From positions 124,001 through 158,077 of the forward strand of contig JBBIQV010000002.1 of NCBI GenBank assembly GCA_037442105.1: a DNA stretch of 34,077 nt. The letters run 5' to 3'. The position numbers were made by a program, and so were the translations under genes. Below are positions 13,980 to 33,582 of this stretch, one piece after another (position 1 is the first letter of the stretch; each line of letters starts with the position of its first letter). Source of the DNA: Nitrospiraceae bacterium (GTDB lineage Bacteria; Nitrospirota; Nitrospiria; Nitrospirales; Nitrospiraceae). The notes below the pieces were generated by a model. It was not told the origin of the DNA and did no database searches. It worked only from the letters and a program-made list of their open reading frames with translations.

Positions 13980-13982
13980 GCC

Positions 13983-14248
13983 TAACCAGCATTATTCATG
14001 ACCATTTCTGCTGCAATCGCGGATTCGCTGCTGCGACAAGCCTTCGGCGGGCAGGCTCGCCGCTTGCCCCCTCGACGTACTGTTTGGGGACTGGCTCCGT
14101 CGTCCGCGACGGTGCCTGTCCCGGTTCGGACGGGGACAGACACCACGCGCAGACGCGGGGAAGGGTGTCAGTCCCCGGGGCTCCGCGTGCCCGTCTCGCA
14201 ACGCGACTGCGCGATTTCGCGACGAACTGTCATGAATAATGCGGGTTA
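13983..14248. mobile_element. MITE family A, copy 1 (GGGGAC hairpin cargo)
   Basis: 19-bp TIRs TAACCAGCATTATTCATGA / TCATGAATAATGCGGGTTA (1 mismatch); subterminal TTCTGCTGCAATCGCG and GATTTCGCGACGAAC shared with the other copies; no transposase. Confidence 0.85.
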
Positions 14249-14662
14249 ATCGGTGACTATCTCGATAGGCGGGGATATCGGAAGCAAGCTCATCCGCCAT
14301 CCAAGCCTCTTGCGGCGATGGAGCCGGGCACGTATACCTTTCGCATGAATCTGGCCGTCGGAAAGGCTCACAAAGTCAATATACCGGTCGACGTCGTGAT
14401 TCAACCCAAGAAGCTGCGCAAGGATCGGATGCCCATTTTGGTCGAAGCCAAGTCGGCTGGCGATTTTACAAATACAAACAAGCGCCGCAAGGAAGAGGCG
14501 ACCAAGATTCACCAGTTACAGGCGACCTACGGCAAGACCGTGGCGTTCGTCTTGTTCCTCTGCGGATACTTTGGCAGCGACTACTTAGGCTACGAAGCTG
14601 CTGAGGGATTAGACTGGGTGTGGGAGCACAGAATCAACGACATCGCGAAACTAGGGCTATAG
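14249..14662 (+). pseudogene. 5'-truncated XamI-family type II restriction endonuclease
   Basis: The frame begins at the MITE right end (IGDYLDRRGYRKQAHP..MEPGTYTF), then IPVDVVI..LVEAKSAGDFTNTNKRRKEEATK..LCGYF..YLGYEAAEGLDWVWEHRI. Only about 137 codons remain. Confidence 0.75.
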
Positions 14663-14666
14663 GCCA

Positions 14667-16262
14667 ATGCTTTCACGTTACGATAACCCGATTGAAGAAC
14701 GCCGACAGGCAATTCAGGCGGTGCTTGATGCAGGCAAGTCGCCGGCCGAGAGGAACCGCCTCGGTCAATTCGCAACTCCCAACGCCTTTGCAATTGAAAT
14801 CGCTCAGTATGTCCAGTCTGTTATAGAACGCCGTCTCAGTACTATTCGTTTCGCTGATCCTGCCATCGGCACGGGCAGCTTCTATTCCGCCGCACTTACC
14901 GTCTTTGGCCCCGAAAAGATCAAGAATGCTGTTGGTGTCGAACTCGATCCTGGCTTCCATAAGGCCACTCGCGATCTTTGGGCAAAGACCGGTCTTGAAG
15001 TGGTGCACGGCGACTTTACTCGTATTGTCGGAAGCAGCAGTCTCCCCGTTGCGCCCAATCTGATCCTTACCAACCCGCCTTATGTCCGGCATCATCACAT
15101 GAAGCGTGAGGATAAGGAACGCCTGCAAGCCCTTGCATACCGAATGACTGGTATCAGGGTCAACGGTCTTGCAGGCTTGTATGTTTACTTTCTCCTTCTC
15201 GCAACGGCGTGGATGGAGGAGGGGGGCTTTGCGGCATGGCTCATCCCGTCCGAATTCATGGACGTAAACTACGGAGAGGCACTCAAACGCTTTCTCACGG
15301 ATCGCGTGGAGCTCGTCCGCGTTCATCGGTTCGACGCCGAAGATGTTCAGTTTGATGATGCCGTGGTTTCATCAGTAGTCTTGGTGTTCCATAAGACACT
15401 TCCGTCACCCGGACACAGCGTCGAGTTTACTTTTGGCGGGACGATGAGTCAGCCTCACATACGCGAATCTGTCACGCTTGACCGACTGCGCGATTCGCGC
15501 AAGTGGACCGCGTACCCCGAGCACGCCAAGAATGACCGCCGCGTATCCACAAACATCGAAGGGCCACAACTCGGAGACTTATTCCGAATCCAGCGCGGTA
15601 TTGCCACGGGTAGCAATAAGTTCTTCGTCCTTGAACGCACCGAGGCAGCTCGACGCAGCCTGCCGAAGAAGTTCCTGCGCCCGATTCTTCCTAGCCCGCG
15701 CTACCTTCAGGCGACAATCATTGACGCCGACGAAGATGGTTATCCGCTGATCGACCAACAACTCTGCGTCATAGACTGCGAGCTGCCGGAGCACGCTATC
15801 GAGGCCAAGTATCCAGCTCTCTGGGAATACCTGCAAACTGCCGAGGCGCTTGGGATCAAAGACGGTTATCTCATCGGTAAGCGCGCGCCATGGTACAAGC
15901 AAGAGCAACGGTTGCCTGCCCCCTTCCTTTGCACGTACATGGGCCGGGGTACCGAGGAAAAGCAGCCGTTTCGCTTCATCTGGAATCGATCAGCTGCCAT
16001 AGGGACGAACCTTTACCTGATGCTGTATCCACAGGGCAGTCTCGCGGAAAAGCTACGCCTGCAACCAGATTGCGGTGCGATAATCCACGAGCTGTTGCGA
16101 TCTGTCACCGGCCACGAGCTGCGCGGCGAGGGACGAGTCTACGGCGGTGGGCTCAACAAGATTGAGCCGAGCGAACTGGGCCGCATTTCGGCGGCGTCGT
16201 TTGTCGATCGCTGGCCGGAGTTGAGGCCCGCTGCGGAACGCCAAGTGGAACTCTTCGGCTGA
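14667..16262 (+). CDS. Gamma-class N6-adenine DNA methyltransferase (Eco57I/TaqI-like; cognate of the XamI-like REase)
   Basis: GQFATP, FADPAIGTGSF (motif I), ILTNPPYVRHH (motif IV), GLYVYF, RGIATG, YGGGLNKIEPSEL. Confidence 0.9.
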   Translation: MLSRYDNPIEERRQAIQAVLDAGKSPAERNRLGQFATPNAFAIEIAQYVQSVIERRLSTIRFADPAIGTGSFYSAALTVFGPEKIKNAVGVELDPGFHKATRDLWAKTGLEVVHGDFTRIVGSSSLPVAPNLILTNPPYVRHHHMKREDKERLQALAYRMTGIRVNGLAGLYVYFLLLATAWMEEGGFAAWLIPSEFMDVNYGEALKRFLTDRVELVRVHRFDAEDVQFDDAVVSSVVLVFHKTLPSPGHSVEFTFGGTMSQPHIRESVTLDRLRDSRKWTAYPEHAKNDRRVSTNIEGPQLGDLFRIQRGIATGSNKFFVLERTEAARRSLPKKFLRPILPSPRYLQATIIDADEDGYPLIDQQLCVIDCELPEHAIEAKYPALWEYLQTAEALGIKDGYLIGKRAPWYKQEQRLPAPFLCTYMGRGTEEKQPFRFIWNRSAAIGTNLYLMLYPQGSLAEKLRLQPDCGAIIHELLRSVTGHELRGEGRVYGGGLNKIEPSELGRISAASFVDRWPELRPAAERQVELFG

Positions 16263-16284
16263 CTCGCAGCAGAATCAAAAGGGC

Positions 16285-16350
16285 GCCTAACCAGCCGATG
16301 AAGCTGACGGTCGCTTGCGGCACCTGTAGCTTATCGGCGAGGCGTTCGAC
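16285..16350 (+). other. Integron attC recombination site
   Basis: R'' GCCTAAC 16285-16291; stem GCCGAT[G]AAGCT pairs with AGCTTATCGGC leaving one extrahelical base; R' GTTCGAC 16344-16350; 66 bp long, starting 22 bp after the MTase stop. Confidence 0.8.
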
Positions 16351-16359
16351 GGGGCGCTG

Positions 16360-16391
16360 TCGTCACGACCCGTCATGAAGCATGCGCGATA
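16360..16391. repeat. Degenerate solo right end of MITE family A
   Basis: ACGACCCGTCATGAAGCATGCGCGATA versus the family end ACGAACCGTCATGAATAATGCGGGCTA. Confidence 0.6.
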
Positions 16392-16466
16392 ACCTCCCCT
16401 CTTGCCCGCTCGGCACAAGCGCGGGACCGAGAAGCACGGTCGCGGGACACATCCGATAGGTCGTCG

Positions 16467-18092
16467 ATGACGCAGTCTGAGGCACTCGCCATATTGAAGA
16501 CGGGCGCGAACGTGTTCGTGACCGGCGAGCCAGGGTCCGGCAAGACGCACACGATCAACGAGTATGTCGCCTATTTGCGCGCGCGAGGGATCGAGCCGGC
16601 CATCACCGCTTCAACCGGCATCGCCGCGACGCACATCGGAGGGATGACGATTCATTCGTGGAGCGGCATCGGCATTCGCACGACGTTGGGCCGATCCGAT
16701 CTTCATGCCATCGCGTTAAGCAAGCCGATCGCCAAGCGCGTCCGGCGCGCCAAGGTGCTGATCATCGACGAAGTGTCCATGCTGGCCGCCGAAGTCCTTT
16801 CCATGGTCGATGCCGTGTGTCGCGAGATCAAGGAGCGGTCGGAACCGTTCGGCGGCCTGCAAGTCGTCGTGGTCGGCGACTTTTTCCAATTGCCGGTCGT
16901 CAAGCCCGTACAAGACGAGCGAATAGCCGATAGCCGACAGCGAACAGCGAAGAGTGAAGAGCTCAAAGCTGCTTGCTACTCGCTGCCCGCTGTCTGCCGT
17001 TTTGCCTATGACTCTCCTGCGTGGAAAGGGGCCGACCTGACGGTCTGCTATCTCACCGAACAGCACCGGCAGGACGACGGCGAGTTTCTGGCTGTGCTCT
17101 CGGCCATTCGGCGCAACACGTTCGGCCCCGATCACCTGCGCTGTCTGACCGGCAGAACCGTTCAGCGCCACCATGCACCGAAGGCCGCGCCGAAACTCTT
17201 TTCGCATAACGTCGATGTGGATCGGGTGAATGAGGGGGTCCTCGCTCAACTTCCCGGCAAGCCGCGTGTCTATGCCATGACATCGCAAGGCCCGGCCGCG
17301 CTCATCTCCGCGCTGAAGAAGGGATGTCTCTCGCCTGAGACGCTGCGTCTGAAAGCCGGCGCGGCGGTGATGTTCACGAAGAACAATCTGAAAGAGGGGT
17401 TCGTGAACGGCACGCTCGGCGTCGTGGAAGCGTGTGATGACCATGACCATCATCCGATCGTCAGAACGCGAAGCGGAAGACGGATTGCCGTTGAGCCGAT
17501 GGACTGGGCGGTGGAGGAGAACGGGACCATCCGCGCGCGCATTATGCAAGTGCCGCTGAGGCTGGCGTGGGCCATCACCGTGCACAAAAGCCAAGGGATG
17601 AGCTTGGACGAGGCGGTGATGGATTTGCGCGAGGTGTTTGAATTCGGGCAGGGCTATGTCGCGCTTTCGCGCATCAGGCGACTGTCGGGCCTGCATCTGC
17701 TAGGCTGGACCGAGGACGCATTCCGGGTGCACCCGGAGGTCTTGGCCACAGATGCCGAATTCCGCACACAGTCGGAGCAGGCCGCCCGCCTATTCGGCGG
17801 AATGACCGGAGAGGAGAGGACCGCCAAGCATGAGCGATTCCTTCGCCGATGCGGTGGGACGATCCGATTCAACGAACCGATGACTCGGGCGACTCCTCCG
17901 CCGTCGGGTTTCGACACGATCAGAGCACGCCATCCCAATGCCTATTGTCCGTGGGATCAGGCGCAGGATGAGCAATTGCGGGAACTCTTTGCACAAGGTT
18001 CGTCCGTCGCCAGCCTCGCGCAAACGTTCAACAGGACGAGAGGGGCCATTAGGTCGCGCCTGGCTAAATTGGGACTGGTGGAGAAGGGATGA
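16467..18092 (+). CDS. Pif1/RecD-like SF1B helicase with C-terminal HTH-like domain
   Basis: GEPGSGKT, TASTGIAA..GGMTIHSW, LIIDEVSM, PFGGLQ..GDFFQLP, LTEQHRQ, FVNG, PLRLAWAITVHKSQGMSL, GQGYVALSR; tail WDQAQDEQL..RTRGAIRSRL. Confidence 0.92.
   Translation: MTQSEALAILKTGANVFVTGEPGSGKTHTINEYVAYLRARGIEPAITASTGIAATHIGGMTIHSWSGIGIRTTLGRSDLHAIALSKPIAKRVRRAKVLIIDEVSMLAAEVLSMVDAVCREIKERSEPFGGLQVVVVGDFFQLPVVKPVQDERIADSRQRTAKSEELKAACYSLPAVCRFAYDSPAWKGADLTVCYLTEQHRQDDGEFLAVLSAIRRNTFGPDHLRCLTGRTVQRHHAPKAAPKLFSHNVDVDRVNEGVLAQLPGKPRVYAMTSQGPAALISALKKGCLSPETLRLKAGAAVMFTKNNLKEGFVNGTLGVVEACDDHDHHPIVRTRSGRRIAVEPMDWAVEENGTIRARIMQVPLRLAWAITVHKSQGMSLDEAVMDLREVFEFGQGYVALSRIRRLSGLHLLGWTEDAFRVHPEVLATDAEFRTQSEQAARLFGGMTGEERTAKHERFLRRCGGTIRFNEPMTRATPPPSGFDTIRARHPNAYCPWDQAQDEQLRELFAQGSSVASLAQTFNRTRGAIRSRLAKLGLVEKG
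16918..17005. repeat. In-frame heptamer hairpin inside the Pif1 gene
   Basis: AGCGAAT AGCCGAT AGCCGAC AGCGAAC AGCGAAG AGTGAAG AGC .. GCTGCTT GCTACTC GCTGCCC GCTGTCT GCC. Confidence 0.8.
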
Positions 18093-18130
18093 ATGCCTGT
18101 TAGCCATATGTTCTTGAAGGGAAGGAGCCT

Positions 18131-18460
18131 ATGCACACGATCCTACTGCTGACCATCTCCAACATCTTCATGACCTTCGCCTGGTACGGCCATCTCAAGT
18201 ACAAGGAGGCGCCGTTGTGGACGGCGATCGTGGTGAGCTGGCTGATTGCTTCGGTCGAATATTGTTTCCAGGTGCCGGCCAATCGGATCGGCCATTATGA
18301 ATTCACCGCCGCGCAATTGAAGACGATTCAGGAAGTCATCACGCTACTGGTGTTCTGCGTGTTCTCGGTCGTGTATCTCAAAGAAGAGCTGAAGTGGAAT
18401 TATCTCGTCGGGTTCGGCATGATGGTCGGCGCGGTGTTCTTCATTTTCAAGGAATGGTAA
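18131..18460 (+). CDS. DMT-superfamily small membrane protein (DMT_6/DUF486-like)
   Basis: SNIFMTFAWYGHLK..SWLIA..EYCFQVPANRIG..QLKTIQEVITL; four hydrophobic helices; SD GGAG. Confidence 0.88.
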   Translation: MHTILLLTISNIFMTFAWYGHLKYKEAPLWTAIVVSWLIASVEYCFQVPANRIGHYEFTAAQLKTIQEVITLLVFCVFSVVYLKEELKWNYLVGFGMMVGAVFFIFKEW

Positions 18461-18506
18461 TCTCTTCGCTGAAGGCTGATAGCTGGCAGCTTCGGAGCAA
18501 CGCGAC

Positions 18507-20945
18507 ATGCAAGATTTTGAAAAACTCGGCGTGTTTTATCTTGGCCGCCCGTACGACCTGGCGAAGAAGAAGCCAAAACCCGGCTGGCTGCTCTACGACT
18601 CGAAGGACTTGGTTACTCACGCAGTCTGCGTGGGCATGACGGGCAGCGGCAAGACCGGTCTCTGCATCGGCCTGCTGGAGGAGGCGGCCATCGACGGCAT
18701 TCCCGCGCTGGTGATTGATCCGAAAGGCGATCTCGCGAACCTGCTGCTCACGTTTCCCCAGCTCAAGGGCGAAGACTTCGCGCCTTGGATCAACGAGGAC
18801 GATGCGCGCAAGAAAGGGCTCTCGCCGGCGGATTATGCCGAGCAACAGGCAGAGCTATGGAAGCAAGGGCTTGATGACTGGGGACAGGACGGAGCGCGCA
18901 TCCAACGGCTTCGTGAGGCCGCCGACTTTGCGATCTATACTCCGGGCAGCAATGCCGGCTTGCCCGTCTCGATTCTGAAGTCGTTCGCGGCACCGTCAAA
19001 GGAGCTCCTCAGCGACGCCGAGCTCTTGCGCGAGCGAGTCGGCACCACCGCCACGAGTCTGCTGGGCCTCCTTGGCGTTGATGCTGATCCGATCAAGAGC
19101 CGCGAACATATTCTGATCTCAACCATCCTGGATACGGCCTGGAGGCAGGGCCAGGATCTCGATCTCGCGGCGCTCATCCAACACATTCAAATGCCCCCTG
19201 TCTCGAAAGTGGGCGTGCTCGATGTAGATTCCTTCTATCCGTCGAAGGACCGATTCGAACTGGCCATGCAGCTCAACAACCTGCTGGCGGCGCCGGGGTT
19301 CTCCGCCTGGATGGAAGGGGAATCGCTGGACATCAACCGGCTGCTCTATACCCCGGAAGGCAAGCCCAGGATCGCCATCTTCTCCATTGCGCATCTCAGC
19401 GACGCCGAACGGATGTTCTTCGTCACGCTGCTCCTGAGCCAGACGCTGGGCTGGGTCCGGACGCAGTCGGGCACCACGAGCCTGCGCGCGATTCTCTACA
19501 TGGATGAGATTTTCGGCTACTTTCCACCGGTCGCCAATCCGCCCTCGAAACAACCGTTGCTCACGCTGCTCAAACAAGCGCGGGCGTTTGGTCTTGGGGT
19601 GGTGTTGGCCACGCAGAATCCGGTCGATCTCGACTACAAGGGCCTCGCCAACACCGGCACCTGGTTTATCGGGCGGTTGCAGACGGAACGAGACAAGGCG
19701 CGGGTGGTGGAAGGGCTCGAAGGGGCAGCATCCAGCAGTGGGAAGAAGTTCGACCGTCAGCGGATGGAACAGATTCTGGCCGGTTTGGGGAACCGAGTCT
19801 TTCTGCTGAACAATGTGCATGAAGATGCGCCGGAGGTGTTCCAGACCCGCTGGACGCTCTCCTATTTGCGCGGTCCGCTCACGCGGACGCAGATCAAGAC
19901 GCTCATGGAGCCGGTGAAGCGTCAACCGTCAACCGTCAACCGCCAAATGTCAGGCGAAGCCCGATTGACGAATGACGGTTCACGGATGACGGCATCACGT
20001 CCCATGTTGCCGCCGGATGTGCCGCAGCACTTTATTCCGATTCGTGGCGGGCAGCCGGGCGGCAGTTCGCTGGTCTATCAACCGGTGGTTCTCGGTTCCT
20101 CGCAGATTCGGTTCTCCGACAGTAAGGTTGGTGTGGATGTGACGCAGGAGGTCACTGTCTTGGCGCCGATCGAGGAGGGACCGGTCTCTGTGGATTGGGA
20201 CCATGCCATCGATGCCGGAGTGGCGCTGTCCGATCTGGAGCGGGCTCCGGCCGACGGAGCCCGGTTCGCTGATTTGCCGGGCGCGGCGAGCAAGGCCAAG
20301 AGTTACGAGAGTTGGAGCAAAGATTTCTCCGGCTGGCTTTTCCGGAATCAAAAGATCGACCTGTTCAAGAGTCTGAGTACGAGGGAAGTTTCCAAGCCCG
20401 GCGAGTCGGAACGGGATTTTCGCCTCAGGCTACAACAATCGGGACGTGAGCAGCGCGACAAGCGAATGGAAAGCTTACGTCAGAAATACGCGCCGAAGAT
20501 CGTGACCTTGCAGGACCGTATCCGCCGCGCGGAACAAATGGTCGAACGGCAAACTGCTGAGTCTCGGGTGAGTCAAGTGCAGGCCGCTATTTCAGTGGGA
20601 GCGACCTTGCTGGGCGCATTTCTCGGACGGAAGGCCATCAGCGCCACGAATATCGGCAGGGCGACAACTGCAATTCGCAGTGCCGGACGGGTCATAAAGG
20701 AAACGCAGGATGTTGGTCAGGCGAAGGAGAATGTCGCGGCCTTGCAGCAGCAGTTGGCCGATCTGGAGGCGCAATTCGAAGCGGAGGCCGATGCTGTGAC
20801 CACCGCCACAGATCCACTCACCGAAAAACTCGAAATCGTCTCCCTCAAGCCGGCGAAGGCCAATATCTCCGTCCGGCTCGTCGCCTTAGCTTGGACCCCG
20901 CATTGGCAGGACGCCCAGGGCCATGTAATTCCAGCCTATTACTGA
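18507..20945 (+). CDS. HerA/FtsK-like (DUF87) P-loop ATPase with C-terminal coiled coil
   Basis: HAVCVGMTGSGKT, VIDPKGD, LYMDEIFG, KQARAFGLGVVLATQNPVDLD, WFIGRLQTERD. Confidence 0.85.
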   Translation: MQDFEKLGVFYLGRPYDLAKKKPKPGWLLYDSKDLVTHAVCVGMTGSGKTGLCIGLLEEAAIDGIPALVIDPKGDLANLLLTFPQLKGEDFAPWINEDDARKKGLSPADYAEQQAELWKQGLDDWGQDGARIQRLREAADFAIYTPGSNAGLPVSILKSFAAPSKELLSDAELLRERVGTTATSLLGLLGVDADPIKSREHILISTILDTAWRQGQDLDLAALIQHIQMPPVSKVGVLDVDSFYPSKDRFELAMQLNNLLAAPGFSAWMEGESLDINRLLYTPEGKPRIAIFSIAHLSDAERMFFVTLLLSQTLGWVRTQSGTTSLRAILYMDEIFGYFPPVANPPSKQPLLTLLKQARAFGLGVVLATQNPVDLDYKGLANTGTWFIGRLQTERDKARVVEGLEGAASSSGKKFDRQRMEQILAGLGNRVFLLNNVHEDAPEVFQTRWTLSYLRGPLTRTQIKTLMEPVKRQPSTVNRQMSGEARLTNDGSRMTASRPMLPPDVPQHFIPIRGGQPGGSSLVYQPVVLGSSQIRFSDSKVGVDVTQEVTVLAPIEEGPVSVDWDHAIDAGVALSDLERAPADGARFADLPGAASKAKSYESWSKDFSGWLFRNQKIDLFKSLSTREVSKPGESERDFRLRLQQSGREQRDKRMESLRQKYAPKIVTLQDRIRRAEQMVERQTAESRVSQVQAAISVGATLLGAFLGRKAISATNIGRATTAIRSAGRVIKETQDVGQAKENVAALQQQLADLEAQFEAEADAVTTATDPLTEKLEIVSLKPAKANISVRLVALAWTPHWQDAQGHVIPAYY
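19920..19999. repeat. In-frame heptamer hairpin inside the HerA-like gene
   Basis: CGTCAAC x3 CGCCAAA TGTCAGG .. ATTGACG AATGACG GTTCACG GATGACG GCATCACG. Confidence 0.8.
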
Positions 20946-21087
20946 CCGCCCGTCGCTTGTGCTCTTCCCTACCCCTCCCCTTTCCTCTGGCCGCTCGCTC
21001 CTCGCCTGAACATCCATCCACCGGCTCAAGCTTTTCGGTCGCAGAACCGATAATTAGTATGGTGCGCCTGTCACGGCGACGCAGTTC

Positions 21088-21238
21088 TGGCCCACATTAT
21101 TCATGAACGCTTCTGCTGCGAGTGCCAAGGAGCGAATAGCGAATAGCTGGTAGCGAATGGCTCTGAGCTACTTGCTGCTCGCTGTTGGCTGTTCGCTATT
21201 CCGATTTCGCGAGGAACCGTCATGAATCATGCGGGCTA
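21088..21238. mobile_element. MITE family A, copy 2 (AGC/GCT heptamer hairpin cargo)
   Basis: TGGCCCACATTATTCATGA ... GATTTCGCGAGGAACCG TCATGAATCATGCGGGCTA; interior AGCGAAT repeats followed by GCTNTTN repeats. Confidence 0.8.
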
Positions 21239-21263
21239 ACAGCCACGAGCGGAGGAAGGAGCG

Positions 21264-21644
21264 ATGCCGTCTGTTCTGATCATCGACGACGACGATAACC
21301 TGAGAGATTCCCTGCGCCGGACCCTGCATAAGGCCGGGTACACAGTGTCGGACGCCAGCGATGGGAAGCAAGGGCTTCTCAAGCTGGAGACCGTGTCACC
21401 GGACCTCATCCTCCTCGACATCTTCATGCCGGGGAAGGAGGGCTTAGAGACCATCGTGGAACTCCGCCGGTCACATCCCGGCGTCCGGGTGATCGCGATG
21501 TCGGGCGGGGGCACCAAAGGCATGATCGACGTGCTCAAGGCGGCGACGTTGCTCGGCGCTCGGCGAACGCTGGCCAAACCCTTTAGCCCTGAGCAATTGC
21601 TCGAAGCGGTGCGGGCGGAAATGGTAGTGGCAGACCGGTCGTGA
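21264..21644 (+). CDS. Single-domain response regulator
   Basis: LIIDDDD, LLDIFMP, AMSGG, LAKPF; SD GGAG. Confidence 0.9.
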   Translation: MPSVLIIDDDDNLRDSLRRTLHKAGYTVSDASDGKQGLLKLETVSPDLILLDIFMPGKEGLETIVELRRSHPGVRVIAMSGGGTKGMIDVLKAATLLGARRTLAKPFSPEQLLEAVRAEMVVADRS

Positions 21645-21654
21645 GACTTCCCAT

Positions 21655-24600: not shown

Positions 24601-25155
24601 AAGATCGTGCGGGCCATGAAGGAGTTCGCTCATCCCGGCATCGACGAGAAAGCTCCGGCCAACATCAACAAGGCAATCGAGAGCACCGTGACGGTCGCGC
24701 GCAATGAATGGAAGTACGTCGCCGACCTCAAGACCGACTTGGATCCCTCCCTGCCGTTGGTGCCCTGTCTCGTGGGCGAGTTCAACCAAGTGGTGCTGAA
24801 CATGATCGTGAACGCGACCCATGCGATTGCCGATGTCGTCAAGGGCAGCGGCGAGAAGGGGAACATCACGATCAGCACGGGGCTCGACGGGGAGTTCGCC
24901 GAAATTCGTATCGCGGACTCCGGCACGGGGATTCCGGAAACCATCCGCCCGAAGATTTTCGATCCGTTTTTCACGACCAAGGAAGTAGGGAAAGGCACCG
25001 GCCAGGGATTGGCCATCGCGCGTTCCGTGGTGGTCGATAAGCACGGCGGGACTATCACGGTGGACAGCGAGGTGGGGAAAGGGACGACCTTCATCATTCG
25101 GTTGCCGCTTCACACCACCGCCTCCGGCAAGGCGGCCACGGAGGGGATGCAATGA
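21655..25155 (+). CDS. Membrane sensor histidine kinase (TM-Cache-TM-PAS-GAF-PAS-PAS-HisKA-HATPase)
   Basis: Two hydrophobic segments around a Cache-like region; PAS motifs; GAF GLPGRVW..DDNFPR; H-box GIAHEINTP; DSGTGI, FFTTKEVGKGTGQGL. Confidence 0.92.
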   Translation: MWLIARLRTSSPLAHLIIGLTAVALVTMVIAWRHLQERLVERVGTSLALAAHDIAGKLDLLLAERYGDLQMMSRAPVLRDGDATAVTNYLQSLRSAYPVYAWIGMANARGAVVAATDQDDVGTDWSGEPWFRELQGTGKIAVRDASPSAELGGHLAVSFAAPIYAGQNEFRGVVVAHIGLSAFENLFTGTTTALQAQHGTGVKVEYQFLRRNGELIADSLRSDEGQTNLQHLGVPSALLFQGAVSGYTVEKHGRRRTMVMTGYAQTKGAAPLDQLSWGVLVRLDWGDVIAPIHAFLWKLGAAGVLVCAPFVGLLLWLAGQLKQEWAKTKQTEQALQASQDRLRAIIDAEPACIKVVDPEGTLLQINAAGLSMIQADDEGAVTGRPVFPLVAREHQEAFRSFHVRVCQGAAASLEFEIVGLKGARRWVESHAVPIRLAPHMPVMHLAVTRDITAEKQAEGRLALQHEVTHVIANGDSEHEAIPLLLRTICHGLGWELGAYWEVDGPSDLLRCRHVWHRGDSVEVAEFAARTRTSTFSNGVGLPGRVWASGKAVWIRDVVADDNFPRAPYAEQAGIHGGLAFPITSGDRVQGVMEFFAQAVREPDHVLLQVLETLAGQISLFISRKRAKEELRLVVESVPNGILMLNQDGTIALVNAQVEQVFGYARQELLGRPVEVLIPERYRAHHAEHRRAFCATPRAREMSERRDLVGLRKDGTEFPVEIGLTPIETVNGLRTLAVVADTAERKRTEHALHAAKEKAEQTAKEKAGVLAALRVFFICLDGRGLVKEWTPSAELLLGLSLCDVLGHPFRSLPIGWNWQEVEPAIDRVRQSLKEVQIDKLVLKQPNGQDLFVKLQISALCDDQETGVVIMGEDVTERLQLERDLVQAQKLESIGQLAAGIAHEINTPIQFIGDNVRFLHDSFADCLAAIRRYRELLAVAKQGAPAPDVIGSIEAADEAADLSYVIEEIPKALSQSAEGVERIAKIVRAMKEFAHPGIDEKAPANINKAIESTVTVARNEWKYVADLKTDLDPSLPLVPCLVGEFNQVVLNMIVNATHAIADVVKGSGEKGNITISTGLDGEFAEIRIADSGTGIPETIRPKIFDPFFTTKEVGKGTGQGLAIARSVVVDKHGGTITVDSEVGKGTTFIIRLPLHTTASGKAATEGMQ

Positions 25156-26273
25156 AACGCCATGTCGTGTTCGTGGACGACGATCCCGGCTTCCTCGACG
25201 GACTTCGGCGGATGCTGCGTTTTCATCGCGATCGGTGGGAGATGACGTTCGCGACCAGCGTGGATGAGGCGCTCGCCTGTTTGAAGGAACGGAGCGTGGA
25301 CGCGGTTATCTCGGATGTCATGCTGCCGGGCCGGACCGGTTTCGACCTCCTGAAAGCCGTCTCAAAATCCCCGCTCTTCGGCCATGTGCCGGTGATCATG
25401 ATGACGGGCTCCGACCAGCGGGACCTGAAGCGGCGGGCGCTGGACGAAGGAGCCGCGGATCTGCTCAATAAACCTGTCGATGTCGATGATTTGACCGCCC
25501 GCATCCGCAACGCGCTCCGGCTGAAGGCCTACGAGGATCAAATCAGGGGGCAAAATGACGAGCTCGAACGAAAAGTCCGCGAGCGCACCCAGGCGCTGCA
25601 TGCCGCTCGCCTGGATCTCATCTGGCGGCTCGGCCGGGTGGCCGAGTTTCGGGACGAGCAGACGGGCAATCACATTGTGCGGGTGGGGTCGTATTGTCGG
25701 GTCCTGGCCGAGGCGCTCGGGCTGCCGTGTGAGTTTGCCGACATGATCTTTCTCACCAGCCCCTTGCACGATCTCGGCAAGATCGGAATTCCGGACGGCA
25801 TCCTCCTGCAGCCGCGTAAGCTCATGCCGGAGGAATGGGACATCATGAAGCGGCACTGCGCCATCGGAGCCGAGATCCTTCGGCAAGACGCCTGGCGCTG
25901 GTCACCACTGGCGGCGCTGGCGGGGGTCGGATCGGCGGATGAGGCCGACGCCAAGAAAAACCCCTTTCTCGCCATGGCGTCCTCAATCGCCCTGGCGCAT
26001 CATGAGTGGTGGGACGGTACCGGGTACCCGCAACGATTGGCGGGGGAGGCGATTCCGCTGGAAGCGCGTGTCGTTGCGGTGGCGGACGTGTACGACGCTT
26101 TGTGTTCGGCGCGGCCCTATAAGCCCGCGTTCGCGGAGAAGACCGTGCTGGGGATCATGAAGGAGAAAGCCGGGAGTCATTTCGATCCCGCCGTGTACGA
26201 TGCGTTCCTGCGATCGCTTCCCGCGTTCCGTGATATTCGCCGCCGGCTCACCGATCGCGCGGCGGCAGCCTGA
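25152..26273 (+). CDS. Response regulator with HD-GYP phosphodiesterase domain (RpfG-like)
   Basis: REC domain, TGNHIVRV, LHDLGKIG, HHEWWDGTGYP, VADVYDAL..RPYK. Confidence 0.92.
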   Translation: MKRHVVFVDDDPGFLDGLRRMLRFHRDRWEMTFATSVDEALACLKERSVDAVISDVMLPGRTGFDLLKAVSKSPLFGHVPVIMMTGSDQRDLKRRALDEGAADLLNKPVDVDDLTARIRNALRLKAYEDQIRGQNDELERKVRERTQALHAARLDLIWRLGRVAEFRDEQTGNHIVRVGSYCRVLAEALGLPCEFADMIFLTSPLHDLGKIGIPDGILLQPRKLMPEEWDIMKRHCAIGAEILRQDAWRWSPLAALAGVGSADEADAKKNPFLAMASSIALAHHEWWDGTGYPQRLAGEAIPLEARVVAVADVYDALCSARPYKPAFAEKTVLGIMKEKAGSHFDPAVYDAFLRSLPAFRDIRRRLTDRAAAA

Positions 26274-26275
26274 GC

Positions 26276-27493
26276 ATGATGAAACACCTGTTGTTTGTGG
26301 ACGACGAGTCAAAACTGCTCGATGGGCTCAAGCGGTCGCTGCGTCCCATGCGGCACGAATGGAACATGACGTTCGTGACCAGCGGCGAGGAGGCGCTGAC
26401 GACGCTGGAGCAGGCGCCGTTCGATGTGGTGGTGTCGGATATGCGCATGCCGGGCATGGACGGTGCGCAACTCATGAACGAGGTTCAGCGGCGATATCCG
26501 CAAATCGTCCGGATCGTGCTGTCCGGCCACTCGGATCGAGAGATGATCTATCAATCGATCGGCGCGTCGCATCAGTATCTGGCGAAACCGTGCGAGATGG
26601 AGAACCTGAAGGCGACCATCCTGCGGGCGTGCGCTCTGCGCGATTTGCTCGGAAACGAGTCCCTCAGACGGTTGGTCGCAGGTATGCAGCAGATCCCCAG
26701 CCTGCCGACCTTGTTTGCGGAAATCAAGAAGGAGGCGGAATCCAAGACATCCTCGTTGAAGACCATCGGTACGATCATTGCCAAGGATATGGGCATGACG
26801 GCGAAGGTTCTCCAGCTTGTGAATTCGGCCTATTTCGGGCTGAACGGCACGGTGTCGACGGCGAAGCAGGCGGTGAATCTATTGGGGTTGGACACGATTC
26901 AGGCGCTCGTCTTGACGGTCCATGTGTTCTCTCAATTTCCGAGGACGATGGACGGGGTGCTTTTTCAAATCGACCGTCTGTGGGCGGAGAGCCTGGCGAC
27001 CGGCGCACTGGCGCGGGCTCTTGCGAAGGCCGAGAAAGCTTCCGATCGGGAGATCGAGCAGGCTTATACGGCCGGGCTTCTCCACGACGTGGGCGTCCTG
27101 GTGCTCGCGGCAAACGTCCGCAACCAGTACGATGCCACCCTCAGGGCTGCATCCAAGGAGCGCATTCCGGTGTGGGAGGTGGAACGGCGGGAGTTCGGCA
27201 CCACGCATGCGGAAGTCGGCGCCTATTTGCTGGGGCTCTGGGGTTTGGAGACCCCGATCGTGGAGGCGGTGGCGTTTCACCATCGCCCGGCCGACTATCC
27301 CGGAAAGGCCTTCAGCCCGCTGACGGCCGTCCATGTGGCCAACGCATTGCGGCAGGAATGGACAACCCCGGCGACCGGCGACCAACCGTCGACCATCGAT
27401 CCGGCGTACTTGGAGAAACTTCATCTCGCCGACCGGGTGCCGCATTGGCGCGATCTGGCCGGCCGGCTTCAGAAGGAGACGGCGAATGACTGA
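26276..27493 (+). CDS. Response regulator with HDOD domain
   Basis: REC (VSDMRMP), IPSLP, DMGMTAKVLQLVNSAYFG, AGLLHDVG, HAEVGAYLLGLWGL, FHH. Confidence 0.9.
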   Translation: MMKHLLFVDDESKLLDGLKRSLRPMRHEWNMTFVTSGEEALTTLEQAPFDVVVSDMRMPGMDGAQLMNEVQRRYPQIVRIVLSGHSDREMIYQSIGASHQYLAKPCEMENLKATILRACALRDLLGNESLRRLVAGMQQIPSLPTLFAEIKKEAESKTSSLKTIGTIIAKDMGMTAKVLQLVNSAYFGLNGTVSTAKQAVNLLGLDTIQALVLTVHVFSQFPRTMDGVLFQIDRLWAESLATGALARALAKAEKASDREIEQAYTAGLLHDVGVLVLAANVRNQYDATLRAASKERIPVWEVERREFGTTHAEVGAYLLGLWGLETPIVEAVAFHHRPADYPGKAFSPLTAVHVANALRQEWTTPATGDQPSTIDPAYLEKLHLADRVPHWRDLAGRLQKETAND

Positions 27494-28706
27494 CGCGATT
27501 CTCTGCGTAGATGATGATGCCAACATCTTAGAGGGATACCGGCGCCAGCTCCGAAAGGAATTTACGCTCGACACTGCGGTGGGCCCCGAAGAAGGGCTCC
27601 GGGCGATCGCGGAGCGAGGTCCCTTTGCCGTGGTCGTGTCCGATCTCCGCATGCCGGGCATGGATGGAGTTCAATTCCTGTCGAAGGTCAGGACGCAGGC
27701 GCCCGAGACGGTCCGCATGCTCCTGACCGGCAACGCGGACCTCGACGCGGCGGTCGAGGCCATCAACCAGGGTCAAATTTTCCGGTTCTTGAGCAAACCC
27801 TGCCCGCCGGAATTGCTCGCCGGCGCGCTCAAGGCCGGCTTGGCGCAACATGGTCTCATCACGGCCGAACGTGAGTTGTTGGAACGCACCCTGAGCGGCA
27901 GCATCGGCGTGCTGTGCGATATCTTGGCGTTGGTCAACCCCGAAGCGTTCGGGCGCTCCTCCCGGATCTCGCGGTACGTTGAAGCGATTGCCGCGCACCT
28001 GCATGTCACCGAGCTGTGGGCCATCAAGACTGCGGCCATGCTGTCTCAAATCGGCTGTGTGATTCTGCCGGAGGCGGTGCTCGGGAAGGTCTATCGCGGG
28101 GAAACGCTGACGCCGGAAGAATCGCAACTCTTCAATCAACACCCGTTCGTGGCCGCCGATCTGATCGCGAGGATCCCCCGCATGAAACGGGTGGCGGAGA
28201 TCATTCGGTTTCAGGACAAGTACTATGATGGGTATGGGGTACCGGGGGACAATCGACAGGGCAATGAAATTCCGATGGAAGCTAGAATTCTGAAAGTCGC
28301 GCTGGACTTCGATGCCCTCGAGTCCGCGGGCAAAACGAAGACCGAGGCGTTCGAGCAGTTGAAGCAACGTAAAGGATGGTACGATCCGACGATTGTCGAA
28401 GCGCTGAAAACGGCGTTTGCCCAGGAGATCAAGTATGAGGTGAGGACGGCCGTCGTTGCGGACCTTCAAGAAGGTATGATCTTGGCGGAGGACATCACTT
28501 CCGCCAAAGGAATCCTGCTGGCGTCGAAAGGGCAGGAGGTGAACCGGTCCATGGTCTTGCGACTCCAAAACTTCAGCAGGACGGTTGGAGTGCGAGAGCC
28601 TTTCACGGTGTTGGTGCGGATGCAGCAGGCCATAGAAGCGTCATCCGACGCGGAGCCGGCGGCAAGCTCCCCTCGCCCCCTCGACCTCGCTGGGGGTCGA
28701 GCCTGA
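27486..28706 (+). CDS. Response regulator with degenerate HD-GYP-like domain
   Basis: Likely start MTDAILCVDDD at 27486 (SD AAGGAG, overlaps the previous stop). The HD position reads LSQIG and the GYP position reads YDGYGVP. Confidence 0.85.
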   Translation: MTDAILCVDDDANILEGYRRQLRKEFTLDTAVGPEEGLRAIAERGPFAVVVSDLRMPGMDGVQFLSKVRTQAPETVRMLLTGNADLDAAVEAINQGQIFRFLSKPCPPELLAGALKAGLAQHGLITAERELLERTLSGSIGVLCDILALVNPEAFGRSSRISRYVEAIAAHLHVTELWAIKTAAMLSQIGCVILPEAVLGKVYRGETLTPEESQLFNQHPFVAADLIARIPRMKRVAEIIRFQDKYYDGYGVPGDNRQGNEIPMEARILKVALDFDALESAGKTKTEAFEQLKQRKGWYDPTIVEALKTAFAQEIKYEVRTAVVADLQEGMILAEDITSAKGILLASKGQEVNRSMVLRLQNFSRTVGVREPFTVLVRMQQAIEASSDAEPAASSPRPLDLAGGRA

Positions 28707-28757
28707 GCGGGGAGTGAAGGCTCGACCGGACTCGAAGCCCTGAGCTTATCGAAGGGC
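28696..28757. repeat. REP-like palindromes between convergent genes (possible bidirectional terminator)
   Basis: GTCGAGCCT..AGGCTCGAC 28696-28726 and GCCCTGAGCTTATCGAAGGGC 28737-28757; both share a CCTGAGC..GAAGG core. Confidence 0.5.
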
Positions 28758-28766
28758 CTTCCTCGC

Positions 28767-30359
28767 CTACGATTTCGGACTCTTTACCATCAGGTCGGCG
28801 ATCCGCTCTGCCAGGGCAGCGATCGTCCTGGACGGATTCAACCCGATGGCCTCCGGGATGATTGCCCCGTCCGCCACATAGAGGTTGCGATATCCAAACA
28901 CTTCGCCGCGATGATCCACCACCCCCTTCTCCGGCGCCGTGCCGACATTGCATCCGCCAAGCGGGTGGGGAGTGACGAGATTTCTCAGCACCGTCCACGT
29001 CGGAGGAACCCATGGCGTGCCGCCTGTCGCGGCGGATAGGTGCTTGTGCATGGCGACCATGGCGTTGACGACTGCCTCGGAGTGCGCGATGTCCCAATCC
29101 AGTTTGAGGATTTTCCGCCAGGGAGCCCACCAGCGCCTTCCCAGGTAGAGCCGTCCATCGGCAGCATCGACGGCTTGTCCGAACCAGGGCATCACGTTGC
29201 TCAGGGGATCACGGACCCGCACGATTTGGCGTAATGCCCCAAGGAGCACATTGAGTGTGCGGTTGGTCGTGCCGGACTCCAACTTGGCCTCCAAATAGTT
29301 TCCGAGCAGGTCCGGGAACCCGCCGTCTTCGACGAAGAACTGCTGCTGCTCGACTGAACCGTCCAGAAAGTCGATCGCGCAGGTGATCGTCGGACCCTGG
29401 GTGGGGGAAATACGGCGGTTGTCGTACAACGCCGGCGTCAGGAAGTCTCCGTTGGAACTCCAGTTGCGACCGAGGAATCCGCTGATTCCCGGCAACGTCT
29501 TGTACTGGTCCCGGCAGCGGAGCAGGAGCTCAGTCGAGCCCAGCGATCCGGCGGCCAGCACCACCCGTTCGGCCGTTTCGCTTCCGGGGATCGTGCGGCC
29601 CCGTTCGATGCGATCGAAATCCACGCGGTAGCCATTACCTTGCGGTGCGAGACGGCGAACCAGGTGCAGCGGTCGAACCTCGGCACCGTGGCGTTCCGCC
29701 CAAGGAATGTAGTTCAAGTCCAGGGTGTTCTTCGCCTTCACCTGGCAGCCGATATCGCAGTTCCCGCAGTGGACACAGGTTCCTTGCTCCTGGCCCTGGG
29801 CATTGGTCCAGGTTTTCGAATGGTTATTTTGAAACGGGTCCGGAAGGCTGTAGTTCCATTCCGGATCGAACGCCACGGCCAGCGGCAGCGGACGGAACCT
29901 GGCTCCGTAACCGAGGTTCTCGGCGCCCTCCTTCATCAACTTGTACCGTTCCGTGAGCTGATTGTCGGGAATGGATTGTACGTTCAACATGCGGCCGACC
30001 AGGTCGTAGTACGGCTTCAATTCGTCGTAGGTAATCTCCGCCGGCCAGCCGATGTTGAACAGATCCCGTTTCGCTTCGACGAAGACGTTGGCATAGATCA
30101 GTGAGCCTCCTCCGACTGCTGCGCCCTGCGCCACCCACATATCGCGAAAACAACGCAGATCGAGCCACCCGTTTTGGCGTTCCGGTTCGTCCTGATCCCA
30201 AATCCACGCATCCCCCGGCTCGCGCGGGTAGTCTCCAGGGTCCCACCTCCTCCCTCGTTCGAGGATGAGCACACGAGCCCCGCTCTCGGCCAGGCGGCAG
30301 GCCACAACGGCGCCGCCGAAACCGCTTCCGATTACGATGACATCGTATCTGTGCGGCAC
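28767..30359 (-). CDS. GMC-family FAD oxidoreductase (cholesterol-oxidase-like)
   Basis: VIVIGSGFGG, VGGGSLIYAN, CVHCGNCDIGC, VVLAAGSLGS, TPHPLGGC, NPSRTIAALAER. GTG start at 30359 with a GGAG SD. Confidence 0.9.
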   Translation of the reverse strand: MPHRYDVIVIGSGFGGAVVACRLAESGARVLILERGRRWDPGDYPREPGDAWIWDQDEPERQNGWLDLRCFRDMWVAQGAAVGGGSLIYANVFVEAKRDLFNIGWPAEITYDELKPYYDLVGRMLNVQSIPDNQLTERYKLMKEGAENLGYGARFRPLPLAVAFDPEWNYSLPDPFQNNHSKTWTNAQGQEQGTCVHCGNCDIGCQVKAKNTLDLNYIPWAERHGAEVRPLHLVRRLAPQGNGYRVDFDRIERGRTIPGSETAERVVLAAGSLGSTELLLRCRDQYKTLPGISGFLGRNWSSNGDFLTPALYDNRRISPTQGPTITCAIDFLDGSVEQQQFFVEDGGFPDLLGNYLEAKLESGTTNRTLNVLLGALRQIVRVRDPLSNVMPWFGQAVDAADGRLYLGRRWWAPWRKILKLDWDIAHSEAVVNAMVAMHKHLSAATGGTPWVPPTWTVLRNLVTPHPLGGCNVGTAPEKGVVDHRGEVFGYRNLYVADGAIIPEAIGLNPSRTIAALAERIADLMVKSPKS

Positions 30360-30375
30360 GGCCTGTTCTCCAACA

Positions 30376-30948
30376 TCATGCCGGTGAGTGTTTTTTCTCC
30401 TTCTGCATGATCTTATCCGTCCAGGCGAGGAGAATGGCTGACCCAAGGAAAGTCATATGAATCAGAATCTTCCACTTGATGTGCTCGGGCGATTCTTGGC
30501 TCACGTTCACAAAGGCCTTGAGCAGATGAATGCTTGAAATCCCGATGAGTGAGGCGGCGAGCTTCACCTTGATCGTGCCGGGATCGACATGGCTCAGCCA
30601 ATCCGGCCGGTCGGGATGTCCATCCAGATCGAGCTTGCTGACGAACGTCGCATAGCCGCCGATTACCACCATCGTCAACAGGTTGGCCACCATGGTGATA
30701 TCGATCAACGAGAGGATGCCCAGCATAAACACCGTTTCGTTCAACTCACGTAAGTTGTGGATCATTTCCCAGAGCTCGACGAGGAACTTATAGGCATAGA
30801 GCAACTCCGCCACAATCAGACCCCCATAGAGGGGAGCCTGAACCCATCGGCTTGCGAAGACGACGGTTTCAAAAACGTGCTCGACTGGGTGGGCGGCGCT
30901 GTTCTTGATCTCGCGCGTGGCGGTGTGCGGTGCATAACTATCCGACAT
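30376..30948 (-). CDS. YqhA/UPF0114 (TIGR00645) membrane protein
   Basis: FASRWVQAPLY.GL, LSLIDITMVANLL.MVVIGGY.TFVS, KVKLAASLIGISSIHLL. Confidence 0.88.
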   Translation of the reverse strand: MSDSYAPHTATREIKNSAAHPVEHVFETVVFASRWVQAPLYGGLIVAELLYAYKFLVELWEMIHNLRELNETVFMLGILSLIDITMVANLLTMVVIGGYATFVSKLDLDGHPDRPDWLSHVDPGTIKVKLAASLIGISSIHLLKAFVNVSQESPEHIKWKILIHMTFLGSAILLAWTDKIMQKEKKHSPA

Positions 30949-31042
30949 GTCCCCTCCTTCGTGTGCCTGCTTCCTGGGCCAAGCTTTTCCCCTCGCCCCT
31001 TGCCTTGGGCTTATTTCATGCGGCGCGGGCCCTTCGCCCTGC

Positions 31043-31230
31043 TAGGAGCCTGTCCGACATTGACCTTTCTACTGCGGCGAACGATCTGCAGCCATCTGCG
31101 TCGTTCTCGGCCCGAAAAAATCCTCAATGTATTCCAGCGAATACACTTCCGGTTTTTTCGGGCCTGCGGTCTTGCATCTGGCCGCACCTCCTTCGCCTCG
31201 TTACGAACGGCAATGTCGGACAGGCTCCTA
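31043..31230. mobile_element. MITE family B
   Basis: Perfect 20-bp TIR TAGGAGCCTGTCCGACATTG / CAATGTCGGACAGGCTCCTA; 188 bp; intergenic; no transposase. Confidence 0.88.
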
Positions 31231-31359
31231 AAGCGCGCGTATCCTAGTCACTGGATCGAGTCCTGTCAATTTGCGAGAAGGAACAACGAATCAGCCGGGC
31301 GGAGAGACGCGGGGAAGAAGGCTTCGGAGTGGCTTCAAAGAACCGTCAGGGCCGGATCT

Positions 31360-32013
31360 TCAGCTTGTCTGGAGCTTGGCATAGACAGACGCTGCCTGTG
31401 ACCGGCAGTGGACTTGCAGCTTGTCATAAATGTTGGCGAGATAATTTTTAACCGTTTTGTCGCTTAGGCCCAGCGCGACGGCGATTTCCTTATTGGTCTT
31501 CCCTTGCGCCACGAGAGGGAGAATCCGCTCCTCTTGGGGCGAGAGCCCATAATGAGGCTGACGACGGGTCTCCATCGCCCCATGGGTCTTGATCCAGGTC
31601 AAGGTTTGTCGGGTAATTCGCTGGTCGAGGTATCCCTGCCCTGTCGCGACCGTTCGAATGGCGCGGATGAGATCATCCGTCCGGATGTCTTTCAAGGCAT
31701 ACCCCTGGGCGCCCTGCCTGATGGAAGAGACCACTGTAGCCTCTTCAGCATAACTGCTCAGGATGAGGATTTGCGCCCTGGGCGCGCCTGCAAGAATCTT
31801 CTTGCACGCATCGATGCCGGAGATGTCCGGCAGCCGGATGTCGAGCAAGACGACGTGTGGACGGCGACGACTCGCAATGCCGACGGCTTCCGCGGCGGTT
31901 CCGCAGTCGCCGATGACGCGTATGCCGGGGACGAGATCGATCACGGTGCGCAGACCAGTTCGCACCACTTCGTGATCGTCCACAATAAGCACGCGGATGT
32001 CTTTGCGAGTCAT
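31360..32013 (-). CDS. NarL/LuxR-family DNA-binding response regulator
   Basis: VLIVDDHEVVR, LLDIRLPD, LSPQE..GKTNKEIA..LSDKTVKNYLANIYDKL. Confidence 0.93.
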   Translation of the reverse strand: MTRKDIRVLIVDDHEVVRTGLRTVIDLVPGIRVIGDCGTAAEAVGIASRRRPHVVLLDIRLPDISGIDACKKILAGAPRAQILILSSYAEEATVVSSIRQGAQGYALKDIRTDDLIRAIRTVATGQGYLDQRITRQTLTWIKTHGAMETRRQPHYGLSPQEERILPLVAQGKTNKEIAVALGLSDKTVKNYLANIYDKLQVHCRSQAASVYAKLQTS

Positions 32014-32837
32014 TGCGTGGCGTCCGGCTGTTCGATGGGGAGTTCGACCATGACGTCGGTCCCCCGGCCAGGTTGCGAACGAAGGTGAAGACGGCCTCCG
32101 AGTTGTCGCGCCCGCGCTTCCATGTTGCTGAGGCCGTACCCGACCCGAGTGCGGTTCGTCCGTCGAAATCCGAGACCATCGTCGGTGACCTCAAACCGAA
32201 CTGTCGGGCCGGATCGTCGCAATGAGATGGCGGCTCGGCGTGCTTTCCCGTGACGGACGCTGTTGCTGAGCGCCTCCCGCGCAATCAAGGCGATCTGCTG
32301 TTTTTCCTCGAGTGTGAGTAGCCGAGCGACGGATTCATTGACTGCCAGATCGATGTGCATCGTGCCGACCTGCCGGTACACCTGAGCCAGAGCTTGGAGT
32401 TCGGCCGCGAAATCGAACTCCTGCACCCTGTCCGATTGCAGTCCGAGGATCAATTGTCGGATCTCATGAATGAGCCGGTTCAGTTGCTCCACCACATGAT
32501 CCGTCTGCACTTTCGCTTTCTTCGGCGCCCGACCGCCCATTCGGCGGGCTGCGTCTAGGCTGAGCCCGATGGCATACAGCGATTGCAACACGCAATCGTG
32601 CAGATCGCGCCCGATACGGTCACGATCTTGGAGCAACTTGCTCAGGCGTTGTTCGGTCGCCTGGAACGCAATCGCCAGGTCCGGCGAGTTTTTTTGCGCG
32701 GAGAGATGATGCGTGCCGCTGTGCGTGAGGTGGGAAAGCCCCGGCGCGCGAGCGGAATGTACGACCGGCACGTCGCACGTTGCTTGTCGCAGACCGTCAA
32801 TCACCCGAAGTCCGTTACGTTCCTCGCTCACGCACAT
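32010..32837 (-). CDS. Soluble HisKA_3 (NarX/DevS-like) histidine kinase
   Basis: RDRIGRDLHDCVLQSL, REALSNSVRHG, VTDDGLGF, GYGLSNMEARA; no TM segment; overlaps the regulator start. Confidence 0.88.
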   Translation of the reverse strand: MCVSEERNGLRVIDGLRQATCDVPVVHSARAPGLSHLTHSGTHHLSAQKNSPDLAIAFQATEQRLSKLLQDRDRIGRDLHDCVLQSLYAIGLSLDAARRMGGRAPKKAKVQTDHVVEQLNRLIHEIRQLILGLQSDRVQEFDFAAELQALAQVYRQVGTMHIDLAVNESVARLLTLEEKQQIALIAREALSNSVRHGKARRAAISLRRSGPTVRFEVTDDGLGFRRTNRTRVGYGLSNMEARARQLGGRLHLRSQPGRGTDVMVELPIEQPDATQ

Positions 32838-32874
32838 CCCTCCTTCTTTTCTTTCTTCTCGGGAACCGGACCCC

Positions 32875-33099
32875 TAGCCCGCATTATTCACGAGCGATTC
32901 TGCTGCAATCGCGCAAAATGAGCAGCTAGTAGCGAACAGCTTTTTTAGCGAGTAGCTGGCAGCGACAGACAGGCAGCTCGGAACTTCACGCTCCCATGCT
33001 ATTCGCCATTAGCTATCAGCTATTCGCTTCTGTTTGAGAGCTATGCGCTACTGGCTATTCGCTGATTTCGCGACGAACCGTCATGAATAATGCGGGCTA
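32875..33099. mobile_element. MITE family A, copy 3 (long heptamer hairpin cargo)
   Basis: TAGCCCGCATTATTCACGA ... TCATGAATAATGCGGGCTA, CTAG at both ends; interior TAGC-type heptamers then GCTA-type heptamers. Confidence 0.88.
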
Positions 33100-33573: not shown

Positions 33574-33582
33574 TCATATCAT

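Follow-up and report, generated by a model that had tools for sequence, protein, structure and literature searches.

A 34,077-nt stretch of a Nitrospiraceae bacterium genome (GenBank assembly GCA_037442105.1, here G000; contig JBBIQV010000002.1, positions 124,001 to 158,077, or G000:C2:124001-158077), called the window below, contains three copies of one miniature inverted-repeat transposable element, or MITE, whose common ends enclose palindromic interiors. Judged from the sequence, this shell belongs to the type II MITEs, its ends being those of an insertion sequence (IS) of the IS1380 family. It was probably moved in trans into YTAR sites, while palindromic repeats (cargo) occupied fixed slots of its interior, were likely shuffled by recombination and, through collapse, likely came to replace the interior. 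The preliminary description of this stretch had taken the shells for hotspots or carriers of smaller hairpin elements that spread by their own mechanism. It noted neither the canonical interior nor the IS1380 partner, nor the core common to IS1182- and IS5-ended MITEs.

Copy 1 lies at 13986..14245 (+) between the flanks CTAA and TTAA, copy 2 at 21091..21235 (+) between CTGG and CTAA, and copy 3 at 32878..33096 (+) within a CTAG duplication, the only perfect one of the three. All are present where they had been reported, and their folding is stronger than that of shuffles (z of -8.0, -3.8 and -4.0, respectively). Their terminal inverted repeat (TIR) had been given as 19 bp, with a TA or CTAG duplication to be looked for at empty sites. 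The actual TIR is 16 bp long, CCCGCATTATTCATGA, and the outer TAG/TAA is part of a 4-bp YTAR duplication. A 19-bp TIR with a TA duplication was rejected because there is co-variation of the outer base across the element, and because the ends of IS1380 begin with CC. In the congener used for synteny (G001), the site orthologous to copy 2 is empty, with a gap of 149 bp (145 + 4), a length that by itself fits both models.

Many further copies exist. A scan of G000 (2.81 Mb, 58.6% GC, 87% complete) gave 98 ends, which form 36 paired intervals, one of them a mis-pair over two elements, plus solo ends. The second pass yielded 38 complete distinct copies: 18 of canonical type, 16 of heptamer type and 4 with a P palindrome and no core. 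They measure 102-389 bp and are without a transposase gene. In 15 of 35 paired copies the two sides of the YTAR duplication agree exactly, against a permutation mean of 7.6 (p=0.0012). In the family, the right-end motif is found in 96 of 151 genomes, with 0 hits for the reversed control. A sample of 289 elements was pooled from G000, five genomes at 30 loci each, G001 and the matches listed from a scan of the collection; duplicates were removed by sequence and 4-bp flanks, and a few are possibly left. Where pooled elements have YTAR on both sides, the flanks are identical in 112/165. Contigs and inspected loci are labelled C and L, and W, P, G, K, Q, S, U and H are our own cargo labels.

A search with PF13701 gave matches in 10 of 31 genomes. 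The two best, in G001 and G007, belong to IS1380 elements of ~1.7 kb that end in CCCGCATTATTCACGA and whose right end agrees with the MITE TIR at 15/16 positions. Their flanks are of YTAR type (TTAG/CTAG in G001, CTAA/CTAA in G007), and the protein of G007 was identified as an IS1380 transposase (NF033539, 362 bits; cut-off 180). An IS with nearly the TIR that the preliminary description called for is found in these two relatives, but not in G000. At the nine other loci inspected, that of G000 included, an end pair of the MITE type was not found; at one of the nine, in G006, the left end is present and the contig is cut. Against the two IS1380 sequences the canonical interior scores 52.5 and 55, with shuffle means of 52.3 and 54.5; an origin as an IS deletion derivative (type I) was rejected, both scores being at shuffle level. 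Since the interior is unrelated to either IS, the shell is of type II as defined in PMC10969869 (here and below, citations stand for those parts of the papers that were covered). The ends, the duplication and the empty site are consistent with mobility provided by an IS1380 transposase acting in trans at YTAR sites. As a separate observation, the IS1380 of G001 (L011, around 2946-3010) is inserted beside a sequence that presumably resembles an attC site; YTAR occurs in such sites.

No passenger gene, the mark of a mobile insertion cassette (MIC), lies between the ends of the three window copies, which are non-coding. Rfam gave 0 matches at the gathering score in the window and, among four loci, a single hit at E=0.94. 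In a consensus fold of 24 canonical copies, 8/51 pairs are changed on both sides; the covariation term is only -0.56 kcal/mol, reflects mostly one subfamily split and was set aside as evidence of RNA function. No evidence of a host function of the shell was seen.

The canonical-interior score is passed by 232/289 pooled elements. The modal length is 188 bp, that of a folded element, followed by 208-210 bp. Inside each TIR, ~20 bp of subterminal sequence is common to all interior forms and absent from the IS, so that all of them descend from one MITE. Copy 1 had been described as a shell around two hairpins. A double hairpin is indeed present (cargo G, 14086..14176, unstranded; 91 bp, GGGGWSAS), but it stands in a mostly intact canonical interior (score 101.5, shuffle maximum 60), where it takes the place of ~20 nt of core. 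Copies 2 and 3 lack the core and consist of the ends and AGC/GCT heptamer hairpins, one in copy 2 (~21125-21202) and nested ones in copy 3 (~32912-33063). The three interiors had been regarded as all different. This is correct for copy 1 against the other two, but the interiors of copies 2 and 3 have a relationship with one another (score 63, maximum 40.5) and none with copy 1 or the canonical interior. That the heptamer interiors might be canonical ones in decay was rejected, as no similarity to the canonical interior is seen. They are not deletion derivatives of the canonical element, nor are the interiors such derivatives of one ancestor; as the preliminary description held, they are foreign and mobile. 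With the further copies and the empty site of copy 2, none of the three outcomes that it had named as refuting its idea was seen. It went too far in taking a common interior as the norm for MITE copies, since size variation and repeats within repeats have been described (PMC10969869).

Slots were assigned by motif-anchored reading. An alignment-based indel map was dropped as noisy, with 172/279 segments unclassified, most of them a variable 21-bp hairpin extension. The slot census used loose motifs and includes false positives (e.g., G000:C20, L071 and L109 under W), and the cases cited are those read by eye. At least seven cargo motif families (W, P, G, K, Q, S and U) occur at fixed positions and recur across genera, and different loop sequences occur at one slot. 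P is mostly a clean insertion at G|C, W replaces ~6-8 nt and G replaces ~20 nt. AGC heptamer arrays take the whole stretch between ~positions 35 and 155 of the shell, and arrays of other word classes likewise replace the interior (L070, L118, L119, L164, L312 and L350). Two further observations touch these slots. L319 (G004:C23) is a 675-bp copy in which GGGGAC ends at the G slot enclose ~330 bp of unrelated DNA; it resembles a decayed TIRtron. Another dispersed Nitrospira repeat, of the GCTCGCAGAGGCCGCACG type, adjoins W and Q hairpins at L477, L482 and L423.

The 91-bp G block is carried by five complete copies in G000 and six in G004, which are 95-100% identical over the block, on backbones with 68-91% identity in the left subterminal stretch. 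This bears out the carrier part of the earlier idea. The same cargo on different backbones also points to shuffling, for which we infer recombination rather than repeated insertion. Replacement of the whole interior is best followed in P and W. In G000, P is found on both sides of the core (C20:10409, C38:18173), on the left only (C28:23399), on the right only (C1:106255) and in collapsed copies (C38:11647, C41:13466, C41:17838). For W, in G033 and G036, the same forms are found: both sides (L219, L231, L234, L242), left only (L285, L292), right only (L240, L276) and collapsed to 90-91 bp (L278, L282, L290, L303). The collapsed W hairpins are hybrids that begin like the left W of their genome, G033, and finish like its right W. 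As each cargo is palindromic, any two copies form direct repeats too; if copies of the same cargo near opposite ends recombined, this would delete the core and leave the ends with one cargo. The series of left-only, right-only, both-sides and collapsed copies would thus explain full interior replacement; for the heptamers the same route is suggested by analogy with P and W. Subfamilies at different sites suggest that each new combination was then amplified as a unit by transposition of the shell.

Several observations weigh against this account. A perfect duplication is seen in just 115/291 pooled elements. The left end of the IS1380 matches the TIR at only 12/16; at both of its ends the MITE is like the IS right end. 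G000, at 87% completeness, shows no matching IS1380 partner, its single partial IS1380-family match being without these ends. Copy 3 is without a clean empty site, its right flank being non-syntenic in G001, and copy 1 lies within a restriction-modification island absent from G001. The core is kept in 0/20 AGC-heptamer elements, and no parent or intermediate was seen among them. The data fit repeated insertion of a single free unit as well as recombination; a free form of the G block exists as well (91%). The pooled set is a sample and no census, in which the relatives are biased to the best right-end matches, at 30 loci per genome and with matches listed only.

Cargo is abundant outside the shells. 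G000 has 149 AGC hairpins (0 in three mononucleotide shuffles), 18 in shells and 131 free, and 35 hits of the GGGGAC motif, 13 in shells and 22 free. Both types also occur outside shells in the window, as had been stated. AGC/GCT heptamer hairpins are found at 4865..4943 (unstranded, intergenic) and at 16918..17001 (+), the latter in frame in a PIF1-like helicase gene and absent from the G001 orthologue. In uvrA, an in-frame insert (12922..13032, +) is made of a heptamer run with a nested GGGGAC hairpin (12961-13032); it adds 31 amino acids in comparison with 7 of 11 relatives, and the other four have other inserts. A heptamer hairpin of another word class (19911..19985, +) lies in frame in a HerA-like linker, where G041, G005, G007 and G009 have differing heptamer-like arrays and none is evident in G001. 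These in-frame insertions indicate that tolerant sites in general collect such hairpins. The double hairpin of copy 1 is also free and in frame in a C30 gene, at 91% identity. In G001, the helicase stands directly after uvrA. The C30 region (G000:C30:28680-28850) contains a CCG-domain, HdrB-like gene, identified by eye, which carries this double hairpin and more GGGGG hairpins in its frame, and GGGGAC hairpins at G000:C62:1402-1500 apparently lie within the coding region of an ATPase subunit.

The free copies, in-frame insertions and slots suggest that enzymes brought the cargo in; for the GGGGAC hairpins this would be a TIRYT-type HUH transposase. The preliminary description had proposed a search for HUH transposases or REP-associated tyrosine transposases (RAYT; REP, repetitive extragenic palindrome) flanked by the cargo hairpins. 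One of three Y1 transposase matches in G000, the C8 gene, is flanked by inverted GGGGACAG ends and narrowly passes the RAYT cut-off (NF047646, 80.6 bits; cut-off 80), but its ends are common with cargo G for the first 9-10 nt only and not for the whole arm. Cargo G contains the GGGGWSAS motif, and the terminal GTAG or CGTC tag of REP and REPIN elements is absent at its ends. The four-helix-bundle (PF05635) genes of G000 are flanked by inverted heptamer arrays in 5/5 cases, one of them (C2:12013) by the same AGCGAAT-type words as cargo H; this link between heptamer arrays and four-helix-bundle genes is an association only. At G000:C38:24707-24892, a Y1/RAYT-like domain with short palindromes at its bounds is found in a 1238-aa (amino acid) frame resembling a DNA methyltransferase.

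Two further MITE families, chosen by their ends and length alone, carry a core homologous to that of the IS1380-ended shell, as found by a hidden Markov model (HMM) and a pairwise test. The HMM was built from 77 TIR-trimmed canonical interiors. In a short family 8/8 copies score 8.1-17.6 bits (best of 160 shuffles, 1.9), and in a 184-bp family 10/14 copies score at least 5.7 bits (best of 280 shuffles, 1.4). The ends of the two families match full elements among 57 new transposase loci: IS1182 in G001, and one in G006, and IS5 in G015. The 184-bp family also has subterminal blocks in common with the IS1380 MITE, and a member with IS1182-type ends lies in the window at 31045..31228 (+), absent at the syntenic site of G001. 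The core motif occurs in 47 of 201 genomes of the phylum, and IS5-type shells predominate among 30 loci read. P and W are present in IS1182- and IS5-ended shells too, W in the same core loop in all three shell types. At the level of sequence, the cores of the IS1380-, IS1182- and IS5-ended MITEs were shown to be homologous. It is possible, if rather doubtful, that the CTCAACGTAY...RTACGCCTC hairpin core with its stems is a persistent Nitrospirota replicator that changed its transposase partner at least twice (IS1380, IS1182 and IS5 ends) and is a specific landing pad for smaller hairpins that overwrite it, in a three-level parasite system with interchangeable shell and cargo.

The hotspot part of the earlier idea holds in part: slots recur across genera, and W and P, two cargo families that it had not noticed, are concentrated in shells, but the two cargo types on which it was based are mostly free (131/149 AGC, 22/35 GGGGAC). 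True targeting would mean that cargo-specific enzymes, HUH-type or unknown, repeatedly insert at the folded single-stranded core or its stems, the slots being enzyme targets and not inherited or recombined alleles. In G036, the shell intervals (29 kb of ~3.9 Mb) hold 62 of the 100 W matches listed (115 in all) and 22/46 clusters, and 4/7 inspected loci outside them are other MITE copies or remnants. In G000, 15/24 P hits are in the shell, most as clean insertions at G|C, and both the common W loop of the three shell types and the variable loop sequences at one slot would fit targeting. All in-shell counts are, however, inflated by amplification of the shell, independent events are few, homologous cores can swap cargo by recombination, and the two original cargo types are mainly outside shells. 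The tolerant loops of UvrA and the HerA-like linker hold differing hairpins across genera, so that MITE-specific targeting is not established, and we consider it unlikely.

The same loops, one in UvrA and one HerA-like linker, speak for plain tolerance, in which abundant small repeats would land anywhere and persist where DNA is dispensable, as in protein loops or the interiors of MITEs, a few founders being amplified with no shuffling or collapse. The large and mostly free pools of hairpins (149 AGC, 35 GGGGAC) agree with this, and the junctions shared by heptamer-type shells of G000, G001 and G041 are consistent with few origins. Near-identical cargo on divergent backbones, the many slot assortments and the collapsed copies with hybrid W hairpins are left unexplained by it, and make it quite improbable as the whole account. 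Heptamer interiors without similarity to the canonical interior could further suggest that IS1380 ends separately captured unrelated palindromes, forming MITEs independently and de novo. This is scarcely credible and is refuted for these copies, as all forms have the ~20-bp non-IS subterminal blocks. An IS1380-ended MITE with slotted, shuffled and collapsing cargo is the more probable account.

The surroundings of copy 1 are unusual. At its right end begins a XamI-family restriction endonuclease gene of which only the 3' part is present (14246..14662, +), the 5' part being missing. A degenerate solo right end of the IS1380-ended MITE (16356..16388, +) lies 3' of a methyltransferase gene. The left and right flanks of copy 1 come from different contexts, which suggests a rearrangement of the restriction-modification island at this MITE copy. 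Copy 1, the 5'-truncated endonuclease gene, the intact methyltransferase gene and the degenerate right end (13986-16388) possibly form a composite element. The 11-mer at the left end of copy 1 (13980-13990) is repeated at 16285, where a hairpin begins (16285-16345), which we take to resemble an integron attC site. Towards the contig end (window 33400-34077), an outer-membrane transporter-like frame gives way to an unrelated frame on the opposite strand, possibly a chimera or a truncation.

The shell offers a sequence-level route by which MITEs with identical ends acquire interiors that are unrelated. It also gives evidence that, through a change of ends, a lineage of MITEs can outlive its transposase. 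Both points bear on the origin of type II MITEs. With its known empty allele, the shell is also a natural reporter for small hairpin families, and the junction rules of P, W and G thereby become testable.

ERIC insertions in Yersinia and cyanobacterial SDR elements are known cases of small repeats within larger ones, at times in fixed positions, and the cyanobacterial STRR are comparable to the heptamer-armed hairpins. Precedents exist for type II MITEs, for TIRYT repeats, for palindromes in frame in repair genes and for the insertion of one repeat into another (PMC10969869, PMC3733652, PMC4596501, PMC4133298, PMC3184786, PMC11602168). In the literature searched, which had most subscription journals, supplements and ISfinder outside its scope, no description was found of the Nitrospira shell family, of an IS1380-derived MITE (PMC4133298 included) or of one MITE core between the ends of several IS families, and no paper on heptamer arrays with four-helix-bundle genes. 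The main text of PMC11602168, as far as covered, is without 'Nitrospir'; its MITE tables may hold these elements.

In prokaryotic type II MITEs, likeness to the IS is limited to the TIRs (PMC10969869). The Nitrospira shell agrees with them in being short, non-coding and multicopy, with TIRs, a target duplication, size variants and a partner IS with matching ends; it differs in its IS1380 partner, its modular slotted interior and the core common to IS1182- and IS5-ended MITEs. GGGGWSAS is the motif of TIRYT ends (PMC3733652, Di Nocera 2013), and TIRYT is subclass 2.1 in PMC6006769. Cargo G is like the TIR repeats of TIRYT and TIRtron elements (PMC3733652, PMC6006769) in this motif, in its dimers and clusters and in a tyrosine transposase gene with such ends in the same genome; in-frame copies in DNA-repair genes including uvrA are likewise known from TIRYT repeats (PMC3733652). 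Unlike those repeats (PMC3733652, PMC6006769), the G dimer sits nested at a single slot of a DDE-type MITE and moves along with that element. The heptamer hairpins are like the hairpins around four-helix-bundle genes and the 23S rRNA intervening sequences (PMC4990558) in their inverted heptamer arrays, the flanked PF05635 genes and the many gene-less copies in G000, but they have no rRNA location here.

Mosaic non-autonomous elements such as MIC231 and TIME (PMC4133298) also have one end pair around differing contents; these are genes or plasmid modules there and non-coding hairpins in the Nitrospira shell. The pneumococcal BOX, RUP and SPRITE repeats insert into one another (PMC10969869), GTAG-15 and CGTC-1 dimers lie within long palindromes (PMC3733652), and BrickBuilt is a minisatellite MITE (PMC4596501). 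As in these systems, small repeats are found here inside a larger one, at times at fixed positions. Unlike them, the Nitrospira shell has many cargo families, several slots and a visible series from double insertion to full replacement of the interior.

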